NCBI RefSeq assembly: GCF_016863615.1
Contig: NZ_BOPF01000003.1
Coordinates: forward strand, 467,564 to 499,563
DNA from: Virgisporangium aliadipatigenens
Lineage (GTDB): Bacteria > Actinomycetota > Actinomycetes > Mycobacteriales > Micromonosporaceae
Direction: 5' to 3'
DNA: 32,000 bases
The first letter of the stretch is position 1, and every line of letters begins with the position of its first letter. A program made the translations under genes and the position numbers. A model generated the notes under the pieces. It was not told where the DNA came from and ran no database searches. It worked only from the letters and a program-made list of their open reading frames with translations. Shown piece by piece: positions 1-19,838 of this stretch.

Positions 1-677
1 GACAACCCGAGCACGACCAGCGCGGCCGGCACCCACCACGAGCCGGCGAGCAGGTACGCCACCGTGGCCGCCGCGACGAACACGGCCGCGCCGGTCGGGC
101 CGATCCACGGGCGCGGCCGCTCGCACAGCGCCCGGATCGCCCGCTCGGCGAGCACCGCCAGCCCGGGCGGCAGCAGCACCAGCACCGCCGCGAGGATCAG
201 CAGCGCCCCGACCAGCGGCTGCCCGACGAACCGCAGCGCGAGCACACCGAGCACCAGCAGCACCGCGCCGGCGACCGCGATCCGCGACGCCCACGGCAGC
301 GGCCGCACCCGCAGGCGCCCGACGCGCAGCTCCTCGTGCTGCCGGGCCGCGCTCACGCCCGCGCCGGCCGCGAGATAGAACGCCAGCGCCCCCACCACAC
401 CGAGCCCGCCCCGGTGCGTGAACGCGAAGAGGGCGAGGCACACCGCGGCGACGGCGGCGAGCGCCAGACCGGCCGGGGCCGGCACAGTCCACTGTCGATG
501 GTCGTCGAGGCTGTCCACGTACTGGCCGCGCACCCACAGCGTGGCCATCGCGATGAACACCACGAACGCCAGCTGCGTCACCGGCGTCGGCACCCCGGCA
601 CGGGCGAGGAACAGCAACACGATGACGGCGACCGCGAAACAGATCGTGCGGCGCAGCGGACCGTACCTGTCGACCAT
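1..677 (-). CDS. polytopic membrane protein of unknown function (3' end runs off the window)
   Basis: Not in the ORF track because no stop lies in the window. My minus-strand translation from the ATG (complement of 675-677) has no stops: MVDRYGPLRRTICFAVAVIVLLFLARAGV...LLILAAVLVLLPPGLAVLAERAIR...AYLLAGSWWVPAALVVLGL. It shows several hydrophobic helices and high GC3. Divergent from the next gene. Confidence 0.5.
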   Translation of the reverse strand, partial: MVDRYGPLRRTICFAVAVIVLLFLARAGVPTPVTQLAFVVFIAMATLWVRGQYVDSLDDHRQWTVPAPAGLALAAVAAVCLALFAFTHRGGLGVVGALAFYLAAGAGVSAARQHEELRVGRLRVRPLPWASRIAVAGAVLLVLGVLALRFVGQPLVGALLILAAVLVLLPPGLAVLAERAIRALCERPRPWIGPTGAAVFVAAATVAYLLAGSWWVPAALVVLGL

Positions 678-763
678 GCCCAGAACGGTCCCACCGCCGC
701 GCGGCCCGACGCGATCCCGTTCCACCGTCCGAGGCTGTCCGGTTGCGGACCTACGATGGGGCG

Positions 764-2577: not shown

Positions 2578-2712
2578 CGCCCGTTCCGCGGGACCCGGGG
2601 CGCGCATCCCGCGGTGAGTCTTTCGGGTGTTTGTAACCGGAGACATCCCGTCGATCTCCCACGCTGGCGATACTTGGCCGTCGGTTGCCCGGCGCCTCGA
2701 GGGGAAGTCGTG

Positions 2713-4368
2713 ATGCGCGTCGACGTACTGATCGTCTCGGCGTTGCCGGTGGAGTTCGAGGAGGCGCGTGCCGCCGGCTCGGCACCGCCGCCGGCGGGCT
2801 TCGGCATCGCCGACTGGGTCGAACGCGACCGCGACGGCCCCGCGCCCTACCTCCTCGGCCGGGGAGTGCGAGCGGGCGGCCGGCGGGTGACGGTGGCGCT
2901 CGCGCGTCCGGCGCGGATGGGCGGCCGGACGGTCGGCGCGCTGACCGCCGTGCTGGCCGAACGGCTGCGGCCCGCGTGCGTCGCCCTGTGCGGCGTGTGC
3001 GCCGGAAACCCGGCGATCGTCGGCCTGGGCGATGTGGTGGTCGCCGAGATCGCCTACGCGTACGACGAGGGCCGGCAGACCGCCGACGGGCTGGTCGCCG
3101 ACCATCGCCAGACGGCTCTCGACCCGGGCTGGCTACGGGCGGTTCAGGACTTCTCGCCGGCCGGACTGCCGAGCCACGGGCCGGCGGACGACCACGAGGC
3201 GACGACTTGGCTGCTGGAGCAGCTCCTGCACGGGAGACAACCCGGTGGGCATCCGGCCCGGGACAGGTTCTTCCCGGGCGGCGCGTGGGCCGGTCGGCTG
3301 GCGGCGCTGGCGGAGGAGGGCGTCGTCGCGCGGCGGGATGCGGACTGGGTGCTGACCCCGCACGGTCGCACGGTGGCGGAGCGGGCCCTGCACGACGACG
3401 CGCGGGGGCCGGGTCGCCTGCCGTTCGCCGTGGTGGCGGGCCCGATGGCCAGCGGCAGCGCGGTGGTCCGCGACGGCGCCACCTGGGAACGGATCGGCGG
3501 CATGGGCGTGCGCACGGTTGCCGGGCTGGAGATGGAGGCGGCCGCCGTCGCGACCGTGGCGCAGCAGCAGCGGATCGGGCACTGGCTGGTGGCCAAGGGC
3601 GTGAGCGACCACGCCGACCGGGCCAAGGACGACCGCTACCGGCGGTTCGCCGCCCGGGCCTCCGCCGAGGTGCTCTACGCGCTGCTGGGCCGGTTGATGC
3701 CGCAGCCGCAACGGCCGGTCCGGTGGGCCGCGGCGGCGTCGGCCGGTGTGCTGGCCGTCGGGCTGGTCGCCGGCGGGTCGGCCTTCGGCGCACACCTGTC
3801 ATCCGACGACCGGGGTGGCGCCCCGGCGCCGTTGGTCTCGCGCACGGCGTCGGACGCCGCGCGGTCCGCGCCGTCCGCCTCGTATCCGGCGGTGCCGTCC
3901 GCCTCGTCCACGGCGCGCGGCCCGGACCCGGCGCCGGGTGCGCCCACCGCGGGCCCGCCGTCCGGCAGTCGCACGGGCGGTGCCGGGCCGACGGGCGGTG
4001 CCGGGCCGACCGGTGGTGCGCCCGCCACGGGCCGGTTCCACGGCGCGATCCTCTTCGACGAGAAATGGTTCGGCTGGACGCTGGCGACCGGACAGTCGAT
4101 CGACGGCACGGTCACCGGCTGGTCCGCCGGGTTCCAGGTCTGGCTGTTCGCGCGCGCGGAGAACACCGACGAGGTGATCGCGCAGGGCCCGTGCACCGTC
4201 GACGGTGGCCGGTGGACCTGCGCGAATCTCCAACTGGACGGCCCGGCGGGCACCCGGGAGCACCTCGACGTCGTCGTCGCCTCCGACGCCGAGGCCGCGA
4301 ACTACGCGGGCCGCTCGACGGTGCCGCGCACCGCCGCCGGCGACGCCACCCAGATCTACAAGGGCTGA
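2713..4368 (+). CDS. membrane-anchored PNP_UDP (nucleoside phosphorylase / MTA-SAH nucleosidase superfamily) protein with an inserted helical segment, one TM helix, a low-complexity linker and a C-terminal extracytoplasmic domain
   Basis: ATG at 2713 with ggggaag 6-12 nt upstream. Nucleosidase-fold motifs: MRVDVLIVSALPVEFEEA (first strand), CGVCAGNP (glycine-rich phosphate/ribose loop), VAGLEMEAAAVATVA and VAKGVSDHAD (the xEMEaaA and ISDxAD signatures). About 110 aa are inserted around nt 3100-3420. A hydrophobic helix WAAAASAGVLAVGLVAGGSAFGA lies around nt 3724-3792. A P/G/S/T/A linker contains the TGGAGP repeats. The last 110 aa or so carry two Cys. Confidence 0.75.
   Translation: MRVDVLIVSALPVEFEEARAAGSAPPPAGFGIADWVERDRDGPAPYLLGRGVRAGGRRVTVALARPARMGGRTVGALTAVLAERLRPACVALCGVCAGNPAIVGLGDVVVAEIAYAYDEGRQTADGLVADHRQTALDPGWLRAVQDFSPAGLPSHGPADDHEATTWLLEQLLHGRQPGGHPARDRFFPGGAWAGRLAALAEEGVVARRDADWVLTPHGRTVAERALHDDARGPGRLPFAVVAGPMASGSAVVRDGATWERIGGMGVRTVAGLEMEAAAVATVAQQQRIGHWLVAKGVSDHADRAKDDRYRRFAARASAEVLYALLGRLMPQPQRPVRWAAAASAGVLAVGLVAGGSAFGAHLSSDDRGGAPAPLVSRTASDAARSAPSASYPAVPSASSTARGPDPAPGAPTAGPPSGSRTGGAGPTGGAGPTGGAPATGRFHGAILFDEKWFGWTLATGQSIDGTVTGWSAGFQVWLFARAENTDEVIAQGPCTVDGGRWTCANLQLDGPAGTREHLDVVVASDAEAANYAGRSTVPRTAAGDATQIYKG
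3973..4022 (+). repeat. in-frame tandem 18-bp repeat (about 2.6 copies) encoding (TGGAGP)n in the linker
   Basis: acgggcggtgccgggccg occurs at 3973-3990 and again at 3991-4008, followed by the diverged partial copy accggtggtgcgcc. Confidence 0.8.
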
Positions 4369-10578: not shown

Positions 10579-13044
10579 ATGGCCGACGGGCCGCATGCCG
10601 ACCTGCCGGACCCGGGCGCCGCCGGCACGGTGGAGGAGCTGACGTCCTGCCTGCGCGCGTTGAAGGTCTACGCGGGTGACCCGTCGTTCACGGTGATCAC
10701 CGAGCGGGTCAACCGCGACCGGCGGGCCGACGGCCGGCCGGCCAACGAGGACGCCGCGCGGGGCACCGTGGTGGACTGCTTCAAGGCCGGGCGCAGGCGT
10801 CTCGACCCGGAACTCGTCGTCGCCGTCGTCCGGGCGCTGCACGGCGATCCCGGCTACGTCAACCAGTGGCGGCAGGCGCTGCGTGTCGCGGCCGGCCAGA
10901 GGGCGGCCGCTTCGCAGGTACGGGTCTTCGACGCGCTGCCACCGGAGCTGGCGGAGTTCACCGGGCGCCGGGCCGAACTCGCCGGCCTGGACACCCTGAT
11001 CGAAGACCCGGCCGACCTGATCCTGTCGATCGAAGGTATGCCCGGGGTGGGCAAGACCCAGCTCGCCGTGCGGATGGCGCACCGGATCCTGCGGCGCCGG
11101 CCGACCACCCGGGTCCTGTACGTCAACCTGCGCGGGTTCCATCCCGATCCGGTGCAGCCTTCGGCCGATCCGGCCGCCGTGCTCGACGCGTTCCTCCGGC
11201 TGCTCGGCGTCCCCGGCAACCGGGTCCCGCACGAATCCGCGGAGCGGCACGCACTCTTTCGCGACCGGCTGGCGGACAGGCCGACCCTCCTCGTCCTCGA
11301 CGACGCCGCCGACGAGGAGCAGGTGCGTCGGCTGCTCGCCGATGTTCCCGGTTGCATCACCCTGATCACCAGCCGGCGCCGCCTGGCACGTCTCACGTCG
11401 ACGACGGCGGCGGTGCACGCGTTCCCGCTCGACGTGTTCACCGTGGACGAGACCTGGGAGTACCTCGTCCGGGCCGTCCCCCGGATCACCGTCGGCGTCG
11501 ACCCGTCGGCCGTCGGCCGGCTCGCGCAGCGCTGCGGTGGCCTGCCGCTGGCGCTGCGCCTGGTGACCGGACACATGCGCGGCACACCCGGATGGACGGT
11601 GACCGACCACGCCGACCGGCTCGACGAGCGGCACGCGGCGCGGCGTATCGACTCCGGGATCGGCGTCGCTCTCGCGCAGTCCTACCAGAGCCTGCCGCCC
11701 GGTCACCGGTCGCTGTTCCGGATGCTCGCTCTCCACCCGGGGCCGGACCTCGACCGCTGTGCCGCCGTGGCGCTCGCCGATCTCGCGCCGGCCCGGGTCG
11801 ACGCGCTGCTGCATCATCTGGAACGCGAACATCTGGTGCGTCCGGCAGGAGAGGGCCGGTTCGTCATGCACGATCTGGTGCGCGCCTACGCCGCCGAACG
11901 CGGTGTCGACGAGGACAGTTCCACGCAGCGTCGGGACGCGTTGGGCCGCCTGCTCGACCACTACACGTCCGCCACGATCGCCGCGATGGACACGTTGCAT
12001 CCGGCCGACGCGGGCATGCGGCGCCGGCCGGAGACCACGGTCGCCCCGATCGTGGCGTTTCCCGACGCCGCCGCGGCGAAGGACTGGCTCGACACGGAGC
12101 TGCCGGTGCTGGTCGCCGTCTCCGACCATGCCGCGGAGCACGGCCTGCGGCGGCACGCCGTCGACCTGTCCGTCACCCTGTTCCGGTATCTCAGCGAACA
12201 TCCCGACGAGGCGCTGCGGATCCACGGCAACGCACGCGACGCCGCCCGCGCCGCCGCCGACGCCGCAGATGAGGCCGCGGCCCTGGTCGGGCTCGGTGCC
12301 GCACGCTGCATCCGCGGCGATCACCGGGCCGGGGCCGGTGAACTGCGCGCGGCGCTCGGCCTGTTCCGTTCCGTCGGTGACCGCCTCGGCGAGGCACGCG
12401 CCCTGATGAACCTCGGCAGCGCCACCCTCTGGCAGGGCGACCACGCGATCGCGCTGGAGCACATGACCGCCGCGCGCGCCCTTTTCGAGTGCCTCGGCGC
12501 GACCCAGGGTGTCACCCACACCCTGACGAACATCGCGTACATCGAGTCGCTCCTGGGACGCCACACGTCCGCGGTGGAGCACCTCGCACAGGCGATCGTC
12601 GGGTACCGCGGCATCGACGACGTCGCGGGGGAGGCGATCGCGCTGACCAACCTCGCAAACGCCGAGAACGCGTTGGGCGAGACCGAACGCGCCGTCACCC
12701 ACTTCCTCCGCGCCGCGGGCGCCAGCCGGCGGGTCGGCGATCGCACCAACGAGGCCGACGCGCTGGAGGGACTCGCGGGCACCTACCTCCGACTCGGCGA
12801 TCCCGCGCGCGCCGTCCCGCCCCTACGTCGCGCGCTCGACCTGTGCCGCCGGGTCGGCTACCGGCGCGGCGAGGCCAACTCCCTCACCCTGCTCGGCGAC
12901 GTGGCGCAGCACACCGGCGACCGGGCCGCCGCCATGGGGTACTACCTCGAATCGCTGGCTGTCGCGGGGATCGACCCCGCCCAACGGGACCGTGCCGAGG
13001 CCGGGCTCCGGCGGATCCTCGGCGGCTTCCCGCAAGCCGCCTAG
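10579..13044 (+). CDS. STAND NTPase: N-terminal HTH-like domain, NB-ARC ATPase, C-terminal TPR array
   Basis: Walker A GMPGVGKTQ, Walker B LLVLDDAAD, ITSRRR, CGGLPLAL (GLPL motif), then repeated TPR-like units (GEARALMNLGS, GEAIALTNLAN, NEADALEGLAG, GEANSLTLLGD). The N-terminal 100 aa resemble the XRE-like HTH heads of actinomycete NB-ARC proteins. Confidence 0.85.
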   Translation: MADGPHADLPDPGAAGTVEELTSCLRALKVYAGDPSFTVITERVNRDRRADGRPANEDAARGTVVDCFKAGRRRLDPELVVAVVRALHGDPGYVNQWRQALRVAAGQRAAASQVRVFDALPPELAEFTGRRAELAGLDTLIEDPADLILSIEGMPGVGKTQLAVRMAHRILRRRPTTRVLYVNLRGFHPDPVQPSADPAAVLDAFLRLLGVPGNRVPHESAERHALFRDRLADRPTLLVLDDAADEEQVRRLLADVPGCITLITSRRRLARLTSTTAAVHAFPLDVFTVDETWEYLVRAVPRITVGVDPSAVGRLAQRCGGLPLALRLVTGHMRGTPGWTVTDHADRLDERHAARRIDSGIGVALAQSYQSLPPGHRSLFRMLALHPGPDLDRCAAVALADLAPARVDALLHHLEREHLVRPAGEGRFVMHDLVRAYAAERGVDEDSSTQRRDALGRLLDHYTSATIAAMDTLHPADAGMRRRPETTVAPIVAFPDAAAAKDWLDTELPVLVAVSDHAAEHGLRRHAVDLSVTLFRYLSEHPDEALRIHGNARDAARAAADAADEAAALVGLGAARCIRGDHRAGAGELRAALGLFRSVGDRLGEARALMNLGSATLWQGDHAIALEHMTAARALFECLGATQGVTHTLTNIAYIESLLGRHTSAVEHLAQAIVGYRGIDDVAGEAIALTNLANAENALGETERAVTHFLRAAGASRRVGDRTNEADALEGLAGTYLRLGDPARAVPPLRRALDLCRRVGYRRGEANSLTLLGDVAQHTGDRAAAMGYYLESLAVAGIDPAQRDRAEAGLRRILGGFPQAA

Positions 13045-13116
13045 GTGTACTGCCCAGGCAGGTTGCAGAACGATTGCTGACAGCGGCCGCGCAACGGCTG
13101 TGCGAGTCTCCCCCCG

Positions 13117-15831
13117 ATGCTGGAGTGTCGGGTCCTCGGCCCGGTGGAGGTGCGCGTCGACGGGCGGCCCGTCGACGTCGGACACGCGCGCCAGTGCTGT
13201 GTGCTCGTGGCGCTGCTCGCCGACGCCGGCCGGTGCGTGCCGCCCGAACGGCTGGCGCACCGCGTGTGGGGCGACGAACCGCCGCCACGGGCCCGCAATC
13301 TGCTCTCCGGCTACGTGTCGCGGCTGCGCAAGACCACCGGGATCGACGTGGCGCGCGAGGGCACCGGCTACGTCGTGCGGGTCGACGAGTTCGACCTGAG
13401 CCGCTTCGACACGCTCCTGGCGCGGGCCCGGGCGGAGGCCGATCTCGCCCGGTACGACGAGGCGCTGGCGCTGTGGCGCGGCGAGCCGTTCGCCGGTCTG
13501 GACACCCCGTGGATCCGGGCGTGGCGCGAGGCCCTGACGGCGCGGCGGTTCGCGGCCGAACTGGACCGCACCGACCTGGTCCTCGCCGAGGGCGGCCACG
13601 CCGAGGTGGTCGACCGGCTCGCGGCGCGGATCACCGCACACCCGCTGGACGAACGCCTCACCGGCCAGTACATGCTCGCGCTGTACCGCTGCGGCCGGCA
13701 GGCCGACGCGCTGCGCGCCTACGAACGGCTGCGCCACGACCTCGCCGAGGAACTGGGCGCCGACCCCGGCCCGGCGCTGCGCCGCCTGCACCGCGGGATG
13801 CTGCGGGCCGATCCCGGCGTCGACCCGCACACGCTGCCGGTGCCCCGCCAACTGCCGGCCGCCCCGCGCGGCTTCGCCGGCCGCACCCGCGAACTCGCCG
13901 CCCTCGACGCGATAGCGGCCGCCGGTGCCGCCGGGGACGCCGTGGAGACCTCCGGCGGGGTCGTGTGCGTGGTCTCCGGTTCGGCCGGCGTGGGCAAGAC
14001 GACGCTGGCGGTGCGCTGGGCCCACCGGGTCGCGGACCGGTTCGTCGACGGGCAGCTGCACGTGGACCTGCGGGGGTTCGACACCCGGGAGGCCGTCGCG
14101 CCCGACGAGGCGGTGCGCGGGTTTCTGGAGGCGCTCGGTGTCGCCGCCGAACGCATGCCGACCGGCCCGGACGCGCGCGTCGGCCTGTACCGGACCCTGC
14201 TGCACGGCCGGCGGATGCTGCTGCTGTTGGACAACGCCCGCGACGCCGCCCAGGTGCGGCCGCTGCTGCCCGCGGCACCCGGCTGTCTGGTGCTGGTGAC
14301 GAGCCGGCGACGGCTGGCCGACCTGGTGCGCGCCGACGGGGCGTTCCCGCTGACGCTGGAGCTGCTCAGCGGCGCCGAGTCGGAGGACCTGCTGGCCCGC
14401 CGGATCGGTGCGGCCCGCGTGGCCGCCGAACGCGACGCCGTCGACCGGATCGTCGAGCGCTGCGCGCGCCTGCCGTTGGCCCTGGCGGTGGTGGCCGCCC
14501 GCGCAGCGGCGCACCCGGGCTTCACATTGGCGGCGCTGGCGGCTGAACTCGTTCCCCGGGAAGGGCTCTACGACGTGCGGGACGTCCTCGCGTCCTCCTA
14601 CCGCGCGCTCGACGAACGCTCGGCCCGGCTCTTCCGGCTCTTCGGCGCGCACCCGGGCCCGGACCTGTCGACGCACGCCGCCGCGAGCCTGGCCGGACTG
14701 TCCACAGTGGAGATCCGGCGACTGCTGGCGACGCTCAGCGACGCGCACCTGCTGACCGAATACCTACCCGGTCGCTACACCGCCCACGACCTCCTGCGCG
14801 ACTACGCCCGCGAGTTGTTGCTGTCCACTGTGGACAGCGAACCGGCGCGCCGGGACGCGACCGCCCGCGTGCTGGATCACTACCTGCACAGCGCCTGCGC
14901 CGCCGCGCTGGCCCTGCACCCGCACCGCGACCCGATCCCGTTGCCGCGCAAGGGATCCGGCGTGACGGCCGAGGCGCCCGGCTCCTACGCCGAGGCGACG
15001 CGGTGGTTCGCCGCCGAGCACCGCGTGCTGCTCGCCGTCGTCGAACACTGCGTGCGCGCCGGCGCCCACGAGCACACCTGGCGGCTCGCCTGGGCGATGT
15101 GGACGTTCCTCGACCGGACCGGCCGCTGGCAGGACCTGTGGGAGCTGGGCCGCGCGGCGGTCGACGCCGGCCGCGCGCTGCACGACCCGCACGCCGAGGC
15201 GGTCAGCCATCGCCTCCTGGCGCGCGCCACGATGAACCGCGACGACCTCGACGCCGCCATCGGGCACCTGAGCGCCGCGCTCGCCCTGTACCGGCGCACC
15301 GGCGACCTGGCCGGCGAGGCCAACACGCACAACAACCTCGCCGTCGTGCGGGAGGCACAGGGCCGCTACCGAGACGCCGGCGAGGAGAACCTGCGGGCCC
15401 TGCGCCTCTACACCGAGACCGGCAACGCGCGCGGCGGCGCCATGGCGCTGAACATGGCCGGCCGCTACGACTCGCTCTGCGGCGACCACGGGTCGGCGGT
15501 GGGACGCTGTGAGACGGCGCTGTCGATGTTCACGGCGCTCGGCGACCGGATCGGCGAGGCCATCGCCCGCGCCACGCTCGGGCATGTGCTGCACGGGCTC
15601 GGCAAGCACGACCGGGCCGTCGACTGCCTGCTGCCGGCCATCGCCGGCTTCGAGGCGCTGGACGACCGCCACCACGTCGCCGAGTCGCTCGTGGTGCTCG
15701 GCGACGCGCACCACGCCATGGGCGACCGGGACGCCGCCGAGCGGGCCTGGCGGCGGGCCCGCGCGATGCTGACCGAGCTGCGCCACCCGGACGCCGAACG
15801 GGTCGCGCGGCGGCTGGCCTCAGCCGGCTGA
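13117..15831 (+). CDS. AfsR/SARP-family regulator: OmpR-type winged helix + BTAD + NB-ARC + TPR
   Basis: SARP head MLECRVLGPVEVRVDGRPV...YVSRLRK. BTAD segment LALWRGEPFAGLD...YRCGRQADALRAYERLRHDLAEELGADPGPALRRLH. Walker A GSAGVGKTT, Walker B LLLLDNA, VTSRRR, ARLPLAL. TPR units follow (GEANTHNNLAV and others). Confidence 0.9.
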   Translation: MLECRVLGPVEVRVDGRPVDVGHARQCCVLVALLADAGRCVPPERLAHRVWGDEPPPRARNLLSGYVSRLRKTTGIDVAREGTGYVVRVDEFDLSRFDTLLARARAEADLARYDEALALWRGEPFAGLDTPWIRAWREALTARRFAAELDRTDLVLAEGGHAEVVDRLAARITAHPLDERLTGQYMLALYRCGRQADALRAYERLRHDLAEELGADPGPALRRLHRGMLRADPGVDPHTLPVPRQLPAAPRGFAGRTRELAALDAIAAAGAAGDAVETSGGVVCVVSGSAGVGKTTLAVRWAHRVADRFVDGQLHVDLRGFDTREAVAPDEAVRGFLEALGVAAERMPTGPDARVGLYRTLLHGRRMLLLLDNARDAAQVRPLLPAAPGCLVLVTSRRRLADLVRADGAFPLTLELLSGAESEDLLARRIGAARVAAERDAVDRIVERCARLPLALAVVAARAAAHPGFTLAALAAELVPREGLYDVRDVLASSYRALDERSARLFRLFGAHPGPDLSTHAAASLAGLSTVEIRRLLATLSDAHLLTEYLPGRYTAHDLLRDYARELLLSTVDSEPARRDATARVLDHYLHSACAAALALHPHRDPIPLPRKGSGVTAEAPGSYAEATRWFAAEHRVLLAVVEHCVRAGAHEHTWRLAWAMWTFLDRTGRWQDLWELGRAAVDAGRALHDPHAEAVSHRLLARATMNRDDLDAAIGHLSAALALYRRTGDLAGEANTHNNLAVVREAQGRYRDAGEENLRALRLYTETGNARGGAMALNMAGRYDSLCGDHGSAVGRCETALSMFTALGDRIGEAIARATLGHVLHGLGKHDRAVDCLLPAIAGFEALDDRHHVAESLVVLGDAHHAMGDRDAAERAWRRARAMLTELRHPDAERVARRLASAG

Positions 15832-16548
15832 GGGCGACCGGACGCCGACGGGCTCCTCGCGCAGCACCGCCACGTGCAGGCGGCGGGTCGGCGCGGTCGG
15901 GACGGTGCCGAGTTCGTCGGCGAGGGCGCGGCGCAGCCGCTCGTAGGCGCGCAGCGCGCCGGCCGGGTCGCCGCCGGCGAGGCAGGCGCGCATGAGCGCG
16001 CGGGTGGCCCGTTCGTCCAACGGGTCCGTCGCGAGGACCGCGTCGGCGGCCGCGCGCGCGGTCCGCGCGGCACCGGCCGCCAGCGCGGCGTCGGCCGTCC
16101 CGAGCAGGGCGTCGCGCAGCAGCGCCGCGTGCCGGTCGCGGGCGCGCGCCAGCCAGTCCACATCGGACACCCACGGCAGCAGCGGCCCGCGCCCCAGCAG
16201 TTCGGCCGCCTCCCGGGCGCCGCCGCGCTCCAGCAGCGCCACCGCCTCGTCGAGATCGGTGCCGACCGCGGTCGACAGCCGGTACCCGTGCCGGTCCCCG
16301 AGGACGGCGTCCGTGCCGATCGCCGCCCGCAGCCGGCTCACGAGAGTCGCCACGTTCGCCCGCGGATCCCGTGGAACGTCATCGGCCCACAGACTGTCCA
16401 CAATGGAGTCACCCGGCACCAGCACGCCCCGCCGCACGGCCAGCATCGCCAGCAGCACCCGCGCCTTCCGGCTCCCGAGCGCCGTCTCGACGGCCGACCC
16501 GTCCCGCCACACCTCGAACGTCCCCACCAACCGCAGCCACGTCGCCAT
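15820..16548 (-). CDS. small SARP-family transcriptional activator (winged helix + BTAD only)
   Basis: Start at MATWLRLVGTFEVWRDG (ATG 16548, inside ORF 15820..16680). BTAD motif GDPAGALRAYERLRRALADELGTVPTAPTRRLH. The 3' end overlaps the AfsR-like gene by 12 nt. Divergent from the NACHT gene. Confidence 0.85.
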   Translation of the reverse strand: MATWLRLVGTFEVWRDGSAVETALGSRKARVLLAMLAVRRGVLVPGDSIVDSLWADDVPRDPRANVATLVSRLRAAIGTDAVLGDRHGYRLSTAVGTDLDEAVALLERGGAREAAELLGRGPLLPWVSDVDWLARARDRHAALLRDALLGTADAALAAGAARTARAAADAVLATDPLDERATRALMRACLAGGDPAGALRAYERLRRALADELGTVPTAPTRRLHVAVLREEPVGVRSPSAG

Positions 16549-16568
16549 GCCGCCACGGTGCCCCGCAT

Positions 16569-16601
16569 CGATGGGACGGCTGTGGAATGCCGATGGAACG
16601 G
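16569..16601. promoter_or_regulatory. three direct repeats with 11-nt periodicity in the SARP/NACHT divergent intergenic region (candidate SARP box)
   Basis: cgATGGGACgg (16569-16579), ctGTGGAATgc (16580-16590), cgATGGAACgg (16591-16601). Repeats 1 and 3 match at 10/11. Repeat 2 matches repeat 3 at 7/11. Confidence 0.35.
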
Positions 16602-16682
16602 GCCCCGACTGTCGTTGATCGTCCCGCCGAACTGCCGCAACGGGTGGTGCGTGAGCCGGCCGCCGCTGGCGATGATGCACGC

Positions 16683-18878
16683 ATGGCGATCCGCTGGCGA
16701 CGGCGCGCGCTGCTGGCCGGCGTGGCGCTGCTCATCGCCGTTCCCACGATGCTGTTGTGGACCGAGGACGGCCAGAACGTCGCGGCAGCCGCCGGACTGT
16801 CGGTGGCGGTCGCGAGCGTCGTCGTCAGCTGGGCGGCGTGGCGCCATCCGCGGACGGCGTCGGCGGAACCGCTCGACGCGGCCGCGACCGCCCTTGCCGG
16901 CGCGCAACTGCGGCAGTGGACCGCCGAACAGCGCGCCCGGCAGGTCCTCGACCCGTATCCGCTGCCGGTGCGGTGGAGCGTCTCGGCGCGGGCGCGTGAG
17001 GTGATGGCCAGTTGGTCCTCGATCCGCGGCGCACCCGGTGCCGCCCCGATGGCGCTCGACGGCTCGTACGACACGATCGCCGATCTGTTCGCCGGCGCCG
17101 ACGCACCCCGCCGGCTGGTCGTCCTCGGCGAACCGGGCGCCGGCAAGTCGATGCTCGTCCTGCACCTCACCGTCGAACTGCTGCGCCGGCGCACCCCCGA
17201 CGCGCCGGTGCCGGTGCTGCTGACGGTCGCCGGCTGGGATCCCGCGACCCCGTTGGAGGAGTGGATCGCCGAACGGGTCGCCGCCGACCACCGCTCGCTG
17301 GCGCGGCCGATGCGGGCACCCGACGGCACCGAACGCAGCACCGCCCGCGAACTGCTCGCGACCGGCCGGATCCTGCCCGTTCTCGACGGGCTCGACGAGA
17401 TCGCCGCCGGCCGGCACGAGGCCGCGCTCGCCGGGATGGCCGCCGCCGGCACGCACGTCGTCGTCACCTGCCGAACGGCCGCCTACGAGGCGGCGGTCGA
17501 CGCCCACGGACCGCTGCCCGCCGCCGCCGTGATCGAACTGCTGCCACTGCGCCCCTCCGACGTCGCCCGGTATCTCGTCGACGGGACCGACCGGCCGGTG
17601 CCGCGCTGGAACCCGGTGCTCGCCCACCTGGCCGACGGCGCCGCTACGCCGCTCACGCACGCGCTCACGACGCCGCTGACGGCCTGGCTGGCCCGCGCCG
17701 CGTACCGGCACCGCGGCACCGACCCGGCGCACCTGCTGCACGCCGGCGCGACCCGCCACGACCTCGAACGCCACCTGCTCGGCCTGTTGATCCCGGCGGT
17801 GTACGGGATCGGCACGGCGTCGTGGCCGGCGCGCACCCCGGAGGAGATCGTGGTGATCCGGCGCCGGCTCGCCTGGCTCGCCCGCCACCTCCAGGAACGC
17901 CGCACCTACGACCTGGCGTGGTGGGAGCTGCACCGGGTCTTTCCGCGTCCGGTCGCGGCCCTGATCACCGGCGTCGCCTTCGGCTCGGCGGTCGGCGCGC
18001 TGGGCCTGCTCGGGCTGGTGATCGCCGGCTCCTCGAACCAGCCGCTGATCGGCATGCTGGCGCTGCTCATGGCGGGGCACGGGAGCGGCCGGCTGATGCG
18101 CTGGACGGTGATCGTCTACCTGGGTGTGCTCCTGGTGTCGTTCGACTTCGTGATCGTCGCGACGCAGGGCGAGCACACCCCGTTCGTGGCGGTGGTGGAG
18201 TTCGCGGTCGGCTGCGTCGCGGGTGTCGCGGTCGGCTTCTCCGTCTCCGCGCCCCGCCGGATCGTGCTCACCCCGCGCGGTGCGGCGCAGGGCCTCGGCC
18301 TGCTGCTCGGCGGGGTGGCGGTCGTCCTGGCCGGCTTCGCGCTGGCCGAGCGGGTCACCGGGTTGCTCGGCGAGGAGCGGACCTTCGTCGGCTTCGTCCT
18401 GCGCGGCTTGTCGGGCCTGGTGCTGAGCTATCTGCCCTTCGTGCTGCTGATGTCGCGGTTCGCCCGCGGGCTGGTCCGCGCGGCGGACGACGGACAGCGG
18501 GCGGTCACCCCGGCGCGGCTGCTCGCGGAGGACCGCGCGGCCGGGCTCCTGCTGACGGTCGCGGTGGCGTCGGTCTTCGCCGTGCTGATGGCCGGTCAGG
18601 TGCAGCTGTCCACGTCCTCATACTGGATCTACGCGGTGCTCCTCGCGGCGACCAGGTGGGTGGTGGTCGCGGTGGTGTTCTGGCTGGCGGTGGCGACGCT
18701 GAGTCCGTGGGGGCGGTTCACCGTGCTGCGGGTGCTGCTCGCCGCGCGGGGCCGCACGCCGCTGCGGCTGATGGCGTTCCTGCGGGAGGCGCACGATCGC
18801 GGCGTGCTGCGCCAGTCCGGCGGGGTGTACCAGTTCCGGCACAGCCGCATCCAGGATCACCTCGCCGGCGACCCGTGA
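16683..18878 (+). CDS. membrane-embedded NACHT-family STAND NTPase (two N-terminal TM helices, NACHT, about eight C-terminal TM helices)
   Basis: Walker A VVLGEPGAGKS and Walker B ILPVLDGLDE. The pre-NACHT motif DPYPLPVRW and the terminal GGVYQFRHSRIQDHLA are typical of actinomycete NACHT proteins. N-terminal TM helices: ALLAGVALLIAVPTMLLW and LSVAVASVVVSWAAW. Long hydrophobic stretches run from about 17950 to 18720. Start chosen at ATG 16683; in-frame ATG 16587 is an alternative. Confidence 0.85.
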   Translation: MAIRWRRRALLAGVALLIAVPTMLLWTEDGQNVAAAAGLSVAVASVVVSWAAWRHPRTASAEPLDAAATALAGAQLRQWTAEQRARQVLDPYPLPVRWSVSARAREVMASWSSIRGAPGAAPMALDGSYDTIADLFAGADAPRRLVVLGEPGAGKSMLVLHLTVELLRRRTPDAPVPVLLTVAGWDPATPLEEWIAERVAADHRSLARPMRAPDGTERSTARELLATGRILPVLDGLDEIAAGRHEAALAGMAAAGTHVVVTCRTAAYEAAVDAHGPLPAAAVIELLPLRPSDVARYLVDGTDRPVPRWNPVLAHLADGAATPLTHALTTPLTAWLARAAYRHRGTDPAHLLHAGATRHDLERHLLGLLIPAVYGIGTASWPARTPEEIVVIRRRLAWLARHLQERRTYDLAWWELHRVFPRPVAALITGVAFGSAVGALGLLGLVIAGSSNQPLIGMLALLMAGHGSGRLMRWTVIVYLGVLLVSFDFVIVATQGEHTPFVAVVEFAVGCVAGVAVGFSVSAPRRIVLTPRGAAQGLGLLLGGVAVVLAGFALAERVTGLLGEERTFVGFVLRGLSGLVLSYLPFVLLMSRFARGLVRAADDGQRAVTPARLLAEDRAAGLLLTVAVASVFAVLMAGQVQLSTSSYWIYAVLLAATRWVVVAVVFWLAVATLSPWGRFTVLRVLLAARGRTPLRLMAFLREAHDRGVLRQSGGVYQFRHSRIQDHLAGDP

Positions 18879-18918: not shown

Positions 18919-19377
18919 ATGGGGATTCTGACCGATTACTTCGTGGCCACGCCCGAGGTGGCCGCCACCCTCGCCGATGCCGGCCCGCACGAGGCCGACC
19001 TGCCCAAGCTGGAGCTGAAGGGCGTGGATCCGGCCGTTCTGGGCAGCACGCTGTGGGCGGTCATCGAGGGCGTGCCGGTCGTGGCGCCCTACAGCGCGCC
19101 GTTCGACCTCGACCGGTACGACGCGATCGACGAGTGGCTCAACGACTCCGACGACGACACGCACGCGCTCGTGCAGCTCGACGACGGCTTCGTGCGGGCG
19201 CTCGCCACGCTGCCGGACGAGCGGGTCGCGCCGGTCGCCGCGCTGTGGGGGACCGCAGAGGAGTGGGGCGGGCCGGTCGAGCCGGGCGAGCTGGACGGGC
19301 TGGTGCTCGAGCTGCGCGACCTCGCCCGGGAGGTGCGTTCCGAGGAGCAGCACCTGTACGTCTGGTGGTCGCTGTAG
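18919..19377 (+). CDS. hypothetical acidic 152-aa protein, paralog 1 (MGxxTDYFVA ... LYxWWxx family)
   Basis: Clean ORF starting 40 nt after the NACHT stop, with high GC3. I recall this N-terminal MGI.TDYF.A and C-terminal LY.W.SL pattern from uncharacterised actinomycete proteins. No function is known to me. Confidence 0.8.
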   Translation: MGILTDYFVATPEVAATLADAGPHEADLPKLELKGVDPAVLGSTLWAVIEGVPVVAPYSAPFDLDRYDAIDEWLNDSDDDTHALVQLDDGFVRALATLPDERVAPVAALWGTAEEWGGPVEPGELDGLVLELRDLAREVRSEEQHLYVWWSL

Positions 19378-19379
19378 CC

Positions 19380-19838
19380 ATGGGCATGTTCACGGACTAC
19401 TTCGTGGCCACGCCCGAGCGGGCCATGACCCTCGCCGACGCGGGGCCGGGCGGCCAGGACGTGCCGAAGCTGGAGCTGAAGTGGGTCGAGCCGGGCGTTC
19501 TGGGCAGCACGCTGTGGGCGATCATCGAGGACGCCCCGGTGCCCGAGGGCTACGGGCTGCCGTTCGACATCCGGCGCTTCAGCGCGGACGGCCCGATGCT
19601 GTTCGCGTGCGAGGAGTACACGCACGGGCTGAGCCAGATCTCGGACGGCTTCGTGCGGGCGCTCGCGGCGCTGCCGGACGAGCGGATCGCGCCCGTCGCG
19701 GCCCGGTGGGCGACGGCGGAGGAGTGGGGCGTCGAGTGGGCGCCGGGGGAGTTGGACGACACGGTGCGCGGGCTGCGCGATCTCGCCCGCGAGGTGCGCT
19801 TTCCCGAGCAGCACATGTACCTGTGGTGGTGCATGTAG
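19380..19838 (+). CDS. hypothetical acidic 152-aa protein, paralog 2
   Basis: ATG at 19380, 2 nt after the paralog 1 stop, in frame with ORF 19053..19838. An ungapped hand alignment with paralog 1 gives about 97/152 identical residues. Confidence 0.8.
   Translation: MGMFTDYFVATPERAMTLADAGPGGQDVPKLELKWVEPGVLGSTLWAIIEDAPVPEGYGLPFDIRRFSADGPMLFACEEYTHGLSQISDGFVRALAALPDERIAPVAARWATAEEWGVEWAPGELDDTVRGLRDLAREVRFPEQHMYLWWCM

Follow-up and report, generated by a model that had tools for sequence, protein, structure and literature searches.

What kind of protein is encoded by positions 16683-18878 of a 32,000-nucleotide stretch of the Virgisporangium aliadipatigenens genome (NCBI RefSeq assembly GCF_016863615.1, contig NZ_BOPF01000003.1, positions 467,564 to 499,563; hereafter the window), in which the core of a NACHT switch and a long run of hydrophobic segments share a single open reading frame (ORF), and what might the membrane part do for the switch? 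The first part of the question can be answered firmly, by sequence and prediction. The frame encodes a real, membrane-embedded NACHT NTPase, an NLR-like STAND protein made by a single gene, and it belongs to the type with six to eight transmembrane (TM) segments in a winged helix-turn-helix. The answer to the second part is graded, and for it the evidence has to be taken in turn, from the gene itself to its relatives and neighbours.

The ORF (16683..18878, plus strand, as are all features below unless otherwise stated) specifies 731 amino acids, closes with a stop codon at 18876-18878 and contains every motif quoted in a first-pass annotation of this DNA. That it is a real gene follows from a guanine-plus-cytosine (GC) fraction of 0.85 at third codon positions, in DNA of 74% GC, together with many relatives at 40-56% identity. 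The start at 16683 agrees with these relatives, whose first TM helix starts around residue 10. Upstream starts, namely a GTG at 16371 or in-frame ATGs near 16584, were discarded on the grounds that relatives begin some ten residues before the first TM helix and that the upstream frame overlaps the start region of a SARP gene on the opposite strand.

At the centre of the protein lies the nucleotide-binding domain (NBD; residues 143-299, 17109..17579), delimited by invariant alignment columns and by PF05729 (NACHT), the sole Pfam domain of the protein, which scores 35.8 bits over a cut-off of 26.7. The Walker A sequence GEPGAGKS (residues 149-156, 17127-17150) has the form GxxxxGK[ST], with G149, G154 and K155 invariant across 81-85 relatives, and the Walker B region (17373-17399) carries D235-G236-L237-D238-E239, in agreement with the NACHT signature D[GAS]hDE; D235, G236, D238 and E239, as well as the sensor-1 residue R264, are invariant in the same set. 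Since the catalytic motifs are both intact and invariant, the ATPase looks functional as far as sequence can indicate. Before the NBD is a conserved region (residues 60-142, 16860..17108), defined by alignment, in which W79, E82 and R86 were invariant in the first alignment; after it comes helical domain 1 (residues 300-379, 17580..17819), delimited by AlphaFold2 helices and aligned to NLRP3, NOD2 and NLRC4. Pfam, NCBIfam and PADLOC scans of the protein found no TPR, WD40, LRR or enzymatic domain, the latter two giving nothing beyond P-loop matches, and neither an OmpR-type DNA-binding domain nor a BTAD is present according to Pfam. The initial description of a NACHT core with neither repeat sensor nor enzymatic effector is in this regard borne out.

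The hydrophobic parts of the chain are equally clear in outline. Kyte-Doolittle hydropathy in 19-residue windows gives two N-terminal peaks (residues 9-27 and 33-51), seven strong peaks between residues 430 and 670 with scores of 1.84-2.44, and one weaker stretch at residues 455-466. An AlphaFold2 model of the whole protein, built from an 85-sequence alignment with a predicted local distance difference test (pLDDT) of 82.5 and a predicted template modelling score of 0.78, contains helices at residues 2-24 and 30-53, and within the block at 422-448, 470-493, 501-518, 531-561, 568-597, 610-640 and 648-673. The N-terminal pair of TM helices proposed in the first-pass annotation is therefore supported by both methods, and forms a hairpin (residues 7-53, 16701..16841) whose two peaks recur in most relatives; likewise, its estimate of roughly eight helices over about 250 residues was a fair count, given seven strong peaks and one weak peak with matching helices in the model.

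The loops between these helices indicate how the block would sit in the membrane. Both flanks of the block are predicted to be cytoplasmic, which requires an even number of TM helices. Across 70 aligned relatives the predicted inside loops hold 1.8-3.3 lysine or arginine residues per sequence, against 0-0.34 in the predicted outside loops, which are uncharged and only about 5-8 residues long. To judge by sequence, this is the pattern expected of TM hairpins with both ends in the cytoplasm, such that almost nothing would be exposed outside the cell, and all soluble parts of the protein are predicted to be cytoplasmic. On the model, inner and outer positions should alternate along the chain, those at about residues 60, 470, 527, 605 and 690 being inner ones. 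Hydropathy, model and loop charges together indicate that the block behaves as membrane-spanning, as had been supposed at the outset. Three TM hairpins are common to the relatives compared. The Virgisporangium protein has about 40 extra residues in the region of the first hairpin (approximately residues 449-499, 18027-18179), mostly modelled at low confidence (pLDDT below 50 at residues 452-474), and these probably form a fourth hairpin.

Where this array is placed within the fold is revealed by comparison with the structures of animal NLRs. The whole model matches NLRP3 with a Z-score of 16.6 and a root-mean-square deviation (rmsd) of 4.4 over 315 residues (model 66..731, chain 131..530), and also aligns with NOD2 and NLRC4; some 350 residues are skipped in the alignments and the C-terminal motif superposes on the end of the NLR winged-helix domain. 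In a second model, of residues 380-731 alone (pLDDT 79.0), 66-77 residues spanning positions 1..352 match the contiguous winged-helix domains, of about 75 residues, of NLRP1, NLRP14, NLRP9, NLRC4, NLRP3 and NAIP5 at an rmsd of 2.4-3.0. As the two separated halves align with domains that are contiguous elsewhere, the TM array is an insertion inside the winged helix and, in the models, it interrupts that domain between helix 2, after the invariant W413-W414, and helix 3. In other words, the first half of the winged helix (residues 380-421, 17820..17945) ends in the W413-W414 pair, the hairpin array follows (residues 422-688, 17946..18746, delimited by hydropathy, model and alignment), and the second half (residues 689-731, 18747..18875) completes the domain with the third helix, which is short in the AlphaFold2 model, a beta-hairpin and a final helix. 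The first-pass annotation, which placed the membrane block before a terminal winged-helix-like motif, thus had the anatomy right; the block lies within the winged-helix domain, not merely ahead of it.

The protein ends with this domain, with no HD2 or repeat sensor after it. In animal NLRs the winged-helix domain contributes a histidine that holds ADP in the closed state. His720 of the Virgisporangium protein (18840-18842), 30-odd residues past the last TM helix and kept in 68 of 70 sequences, appears from the model to correspond to the histidine region of NLR winged helices, and, to judge by the predicted structure, the winged-helix extension, with its conserved histidine, would pack on the NBD. 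Moreover, the winged-helix domain aligns only with closed or ADP-bound entries; alignments with the active-state entries 8ej4, 3jbl, 6b5b and 8fvu stop at residue 369.

The array itself has no convincing counterpart among known membrane folds. A search of 48,161 PDB representatives with VIA-align returned none at Z >= 8, the best being the TM domain of YnaI (Z 7.8, rmsd 5.0, 115 residues), a score no better than noise for helical bundles. The array matched no family in Pfam, NCBIfam or PADLOC, and a protein atlas assigned it none, with scores of at most 0.82. To that extent the profile and structure searches brought up no transporter or sensor fold of the kind that would have overturned the account in the first-pass annotation. 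Within the array, hairpin-against-hairpin comparisons in hhalign scored 23-28 and column-shuffled controls 3-9, save that 3 of the 84 controls scored about 126-131; no cause for these was found and a tool artefact is probable. With three shuffles unexplainedly high, the evidence that the array is a triplicated hairpin unit is only suggestive.

Conservation within the array falls in its cytoplasmic loops (P524, R526, D603, P610, L614, D617, R618, W676 and R683). Five of these residues, D603 to R618, lie in one loop between hairpins (residues 592-619, 18456..18539), in which the model places a short strand paired with a strand in the P524 loop. The TM helices are poorly conserved, the intramembrane charges D488, E506, R574 and R658 are not kept in relatives, and the alignment of relatives contains no conserved polar or pore-lining pattern in the helices. 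Taken together, the loop-only conservation and the unconserved charges speak against a specific pocket for a ligand and against a pore lining that is conserved; they would fit a sensor of physical state or an anchor.

This evidence bears directly on the idea that the array does nothing but anchor the protein, the signal being read on the cytoplasmic side, either by the conserved loops next to the membrane or by the NACHT core, and the membrane merely placing the switch. The confinement of the conserved residues to cytoplasmic loops is what such an arrangement would produce, as are the short, uncharged outside loops and a block that ranges from 116 to 288 residues among relatives, with hairpins gained and lost. 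For anchoring, however, one helix would suffice, and at least six helices placed in the nucleotide-locking domain, and kept there in more than 3,000 cluster representatives, suggest coupling over tethering. We regard pure anchoring as unlikely, and place it second among the alternatives to be weighed here, after pore formation and ahead of a partnership with the neighbouring SARP.

The breadth of the family is evident from searches with a profile built from the array and the two halves of the winged helix, which returned 3,123 cluster representatives (clustered at 50% identity) at E <= 1e-30 and 8,436 at E <= 1e-10. Among the relatives are proteins from numerous genera of actinobacteria, such as Actinoplanes, Micromonospora, Streptomyces, Amycolatopsis, Nocardia, Parafrankia and Nonomuraea. 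With few exceptions, the relatives examined have a TM block that starts 270-300 residues past Walker A and that is kept after the NACHT core whatever the N-terminal module or C-terminal WD40 extension. These modules vary widely. From a Pfam scan of the terminal extensions at 80 loci, a short N-terminus, usually of two TM helices, is found at 59, a fused SARP (OmpR-type domain plus BTAD) at 8, an XRE helix-turn-helix at 5, and a trypsin-like peptidase and Clp_N at 2 each; C-terminal extensions, among them WD40 and NHL propellers, occur at 16 of the 80. SEFIR and PNP_UDP domains are also present in the wider list of matches. On a tree of 81 rows, built from the NACHT and winged-helix columns, the type of N-terminus changes at least 13 times, and the Virgisporangium protein groups, with support of 100, with short-N proteins of Actinoplanes and Paractinoplanes, far from the main SARP-fused clade. 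Its N-terminal TM hairpin occupies the slot filled by soluble modules in relatives. As the array is constant while the N- and C-terminal modules vary, it is to be seen as the sensor or the anchor of the clade and not as its weapon.

Within its own taxonomic family the gene is patchily distributed: at E <= 1e-40, only 28 of 121 genomes have it, and even the best match from the same genus shares no more than 43% identity. The source genome has one clear paralog. In Actinoplanes subglobosus, a SARP-NACHT paralog (L042:846-3734, minus strand) is divergent from a NACHT-TM gene (L042:4005-7025, plus strand). Some relatives (P0103, of 976 amino acids, and WD40-tailed ones such as P0095 and L088) combine the N-terminal TM pair and the inserted array with a C-terminal PNP_UDP_1 domain or WD40 propeller, from which it follows that the array can coexist with a conventional sensor or effector.

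It is against this variety of modules that a role for the hairpins as a weapon has to be set. Here a depolarising pore would form, on nucleotide-driven oligomerisation, from the N-terminal hairpin, from the glycine-zipper hairpins or from both, and the protein would by implication be an abortive-infection or programmed-death switch. There is indeed no other effector in the protein, the slot for an effector is taken by the N-terminal hairpin, glycine makes up about 15% of the array, with some 12 GxxxG motifs per block, and some relatives carry terminal modules of the conflict type (trypsin-like peptidase, SEFIR, PNP_UDP). Yet the array is also kept where the output is a DNA-binding domain, as in the SARP- and XRE-headed proteins; its helices have neither a polar nor a pore-lining pattern that is conserved, none of the four intramembrane charges being retained; there are no defence genes among 150 immediate neighbours (below); and the sensor would remain unaccounted for. 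Pore formation is consequently doubtful, although it carries the greatest weight among the alternatives, and the death-switch role that it implies is no less doubtful. The first-pass annotation had suggested either channel or pore gating or the sensing of envelope state, and of these gating is not favoured, because it is in cytoplasmic loops that the conserved residues lie, whereas the TM helices themselves are little conserved and differ in number.

The reading that we prefer, and which we hold to be about as probable as its negation, is that of a membrane-embedded STAND switch whose hairpin array senses the state of the membrane or simply anchors the protein. The resting state would be closed and ADP-bound, as may be supposed from a model whose only matches are to closed NLR structures. 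The state of the membrane, or a molecule or protein resident in it, would then alter the bundle of hairpins and so shift the two halves of the winged helix relative to each other, which would loosen the lock between winged helix and NBD; nucleotide could now be exchanged, and the protein could oligomerise within the membrane plane. The output would pass through whatever occupies the N-terminal slot: in relatives, SARP or XRE DNA-binding domains, a trypsin-like peptidase or others; in the Virgisporangium protein, where the slot holds a TM hairpin only, most likely an effect on the membrane or the recruitment of a partner. The array itself may be a sensor of physical state or a mere anchor, as opposed to a specific ligand pocket.

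Several points weigh against this mechanism. No experiment is on record for any member of the family; topology and structure are predictions, the pLDDT of the TM part being about 50-80 and falling below 50 at residues 452-474; poor conservation and a variable number of hairpins suit a passive anchor as well as a sensor; and the last step of the mechanism is guesswork, no output domain being recognisable in the Virgisporangium protein.

A bolder form of the same idea takes the hairpin array to be a mechanical or lipid-state transducer and the whole to be a one-protein alarm for membrane integrity. If a phage holin, a lantibiotic or a daptomycin-like agent damaged or invaded the membrane, the halves of the winged helix would be drawn apart, the NACHT domains would oligomerise in the membrane plane, and the N-terminal hairpins would cluster into a lesion; in relatives headed by SARP or XRE domains, this event would turn on transcription. 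We consider this a long shot, appreciably less probable than the pore.

Whether the gene acts alone was judged from its surroundings. The window neighbours were compared by tblastn with 8 and then 80 related loci, and 534 flanking proteins were clustered all against all; no family occurred in more than 7 of the 80 loci, and the flanking families that recur are of common types (ABC ATPases, kinases and MFS transporters). Among 150 immediate neighbours drawn from 76 loci, PADLOC revealed no defence-island context, its only matches being generic Ser/Thr kinase ones in three members; the Pfam profile of these neighbours is heterogeneous, and 4 of the 150 are themselves NACHT proteins. As the neighbours are not conserved, the unit is the single gene.

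The closest candidate for a partner is a small SARP regulator on the minus strand (15820..16548), which is included here as context only, a link to the NACHT gene not being established. Its start is probably the ATG at 16548 (giving M-A-T-W-L-R-L) and not the GTG at 16680, from which a divergent intergenic region of 134 bp (16549-16682) follows. This region contains the 11-nucleotide direct repeats CGATGGGACGG and CGATGGAACGG at 16569 and 16591, with a spacing of 22 nucleotides, as well as a second repeat pair 85 nucleotides apart. Such repeats could be a SARP box, but short repeats in two copies are often due to chance. One might propose from this arrangement that the NACHT protein serves the SARP as its partner and membrane sensor, in a split form of the SARP-NACHT-TM fusions, a proposal to which the proximity of the two genes, the repeats between them and the occurrence, in 8 of 80 relatives, of a SARP fused to this NACHT-TM body all lend something. 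The source genome, however, has 55 BTAD (SARP) genes in 10.3 Mb, mostly in open frames of 900-1200 amino acids, such that adjacency is unremarkable; unfused SARP neighbours occur at some 4-5 of the 80 loci, roughly the rate that chance would give at this gene density; and on the tree the SARP-fused proteins stand apart, in a clade of their own that is distant from the Virgisporangium protein. The partnership is very unlikely. An origin of the pair by fission of a SARP-NACHT fusion was rejected on similar grounds, namely the distance of the fused clade on the tree and the 55 BTAD genes of the genome. We give equally little credence to the extension of the proposal in which the pair would control transcription, perhaps that of the two genes downstream. 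These encode tandem paralogs of 152 amino acids (18919-19377 and 19380-19838), 64% identical without gaps, which have no Pfam match and no further copy in the 10.3-Mb genome, and which tblastn found at none of 88 related loci.

Upstream, the NACHT-TM gene is the last of three STAND genes within about 8.3 kb (10579-18878), the others being of the NB-ARC-TPR (10579-13044) and SARP-NB-ARC-TPR (13117-15831) types. Elsewhere in the window, 2614-4368 encodes a protein of 584 amino acids with a match to PNP_UDP_1, a nucleosidase fold, at residues 247-353.

The usual description of NLR-type switches is that of soluble sensors in the cytoplasm. The more than 3,000 cluster representatives with membrane hairpins in the nucleotide-locking domain would imply a direct route from membrane to switch, and if the alarm proposed above were real, it would be the first demonstrated case of an NLR-type switch that reads the membrane itself. 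The Virgisporangium protein is a compact member of the family, with neither soluble effector nor soluble sensor, from an actinomycete lineage of a culturable type. What is gained here is the precise insertion point, a predicted topology and the model of a three-hairpin repeat; the design is unusual but not new, and the locus adds little that is new in kind.

Indeed, although the first-pass annotation implied novelty, the architecture had already been catalogued. In clade 5 of Table S1 of Kibby et al. (bioRxiv 10.1101/2022.07.19.500537), four actinobacterial NACHT proteins are listed with '68TM-wHTH', among them Micromonospora WP_047891492.1 (NACHT+68TM-wHTH) and an entry from Frankia sp., and intramembrane or periplasmic sensing is predicted for the type; none of the clade 5 rows consulted carries the label of a tested bNACHT. 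The suggestion of envelope sensing made in the first-pass annotation agrees with that prediction. A full-text literature search found no paper devoted to the 68TM-wHTH NACHT family. The likeness lies in an actinobacterial NACHT protein whose winged helix holds six to eight TM segments and whose N-terminal modules vary, and the Virgisporangium protein has seven strong segments and one weak segment between the halves of its winged-helix domain; by architecture and taxon it would belong to this clade 5 type. The Micromonospora entry, with its NACHT domain from about residue 164 and a length of about 690 amino acids, is laid out as are the close relatives found here, one of which, a Micromonospora protein in the P0023 cluster, resembles it in genus, length and layout, a resemblance that does not by itself make the two the same protein. 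The SARP-fused, Clp_N-fused and WD40-tailed forms fall outside the four rows of the table, and the three-hairpin repeat, the topology and the exact point of insertion are additions to its description.

With bNACHT01, bNACHT25 and the other bNACHTs tested by Kibby et al., the Virgisporangium protein shares the NACHT module with its D[GAS]hDE signature and, as far as that preprint sets them out, an organisation in three parts, with the output at the N-terminus, the switch in the centre and the sensor at the C-terminus. The tested proteins are there soluble, their N-terminal domains being enzymatic or helical and their sensors either repeats or short C-terminal ones, whereas the present protein is polytopic and has no enzymatic effector, and its family lacks a defence-island context. 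The AfsR-type SARP STAND regulators (SARP-NB-ARC-TPR) place a SARP head on a STAND switch, as do 8 of the 80 relatives; they differ in that the core is NB-ARC and not NACHT, the sensor is a soluble TPR and there are no TM segments, while the Virgisporangium protein lacks the SARP. The animal NLRs in their closed, ADP-bound form (NLRP3, NOD2, NLRC4) share the fold of NBD, helical domain 1 and winged helix (Z 15-17 over about 320 residues), and the terminal beta-hairpin and histidine of the Virgisporangium protein align with their winged-helix histidine region, but at 12-15% identity; a membrane insertion is absent from them, and beyond the winged helix they continue into HD2 and LRRs. The KAP family of P-loop NTPases, named in a title by Aravind et al. 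from 2004 (Genome Biol 5:R30), reportedly carries TM segments inserted inside its NTPase domain. It is alike in the idea of a membrane insertion, but it is another NTPase family in which, by that title, the insertion lies within the NTPase domain, and not, as here, within the winged helix that would lock it.

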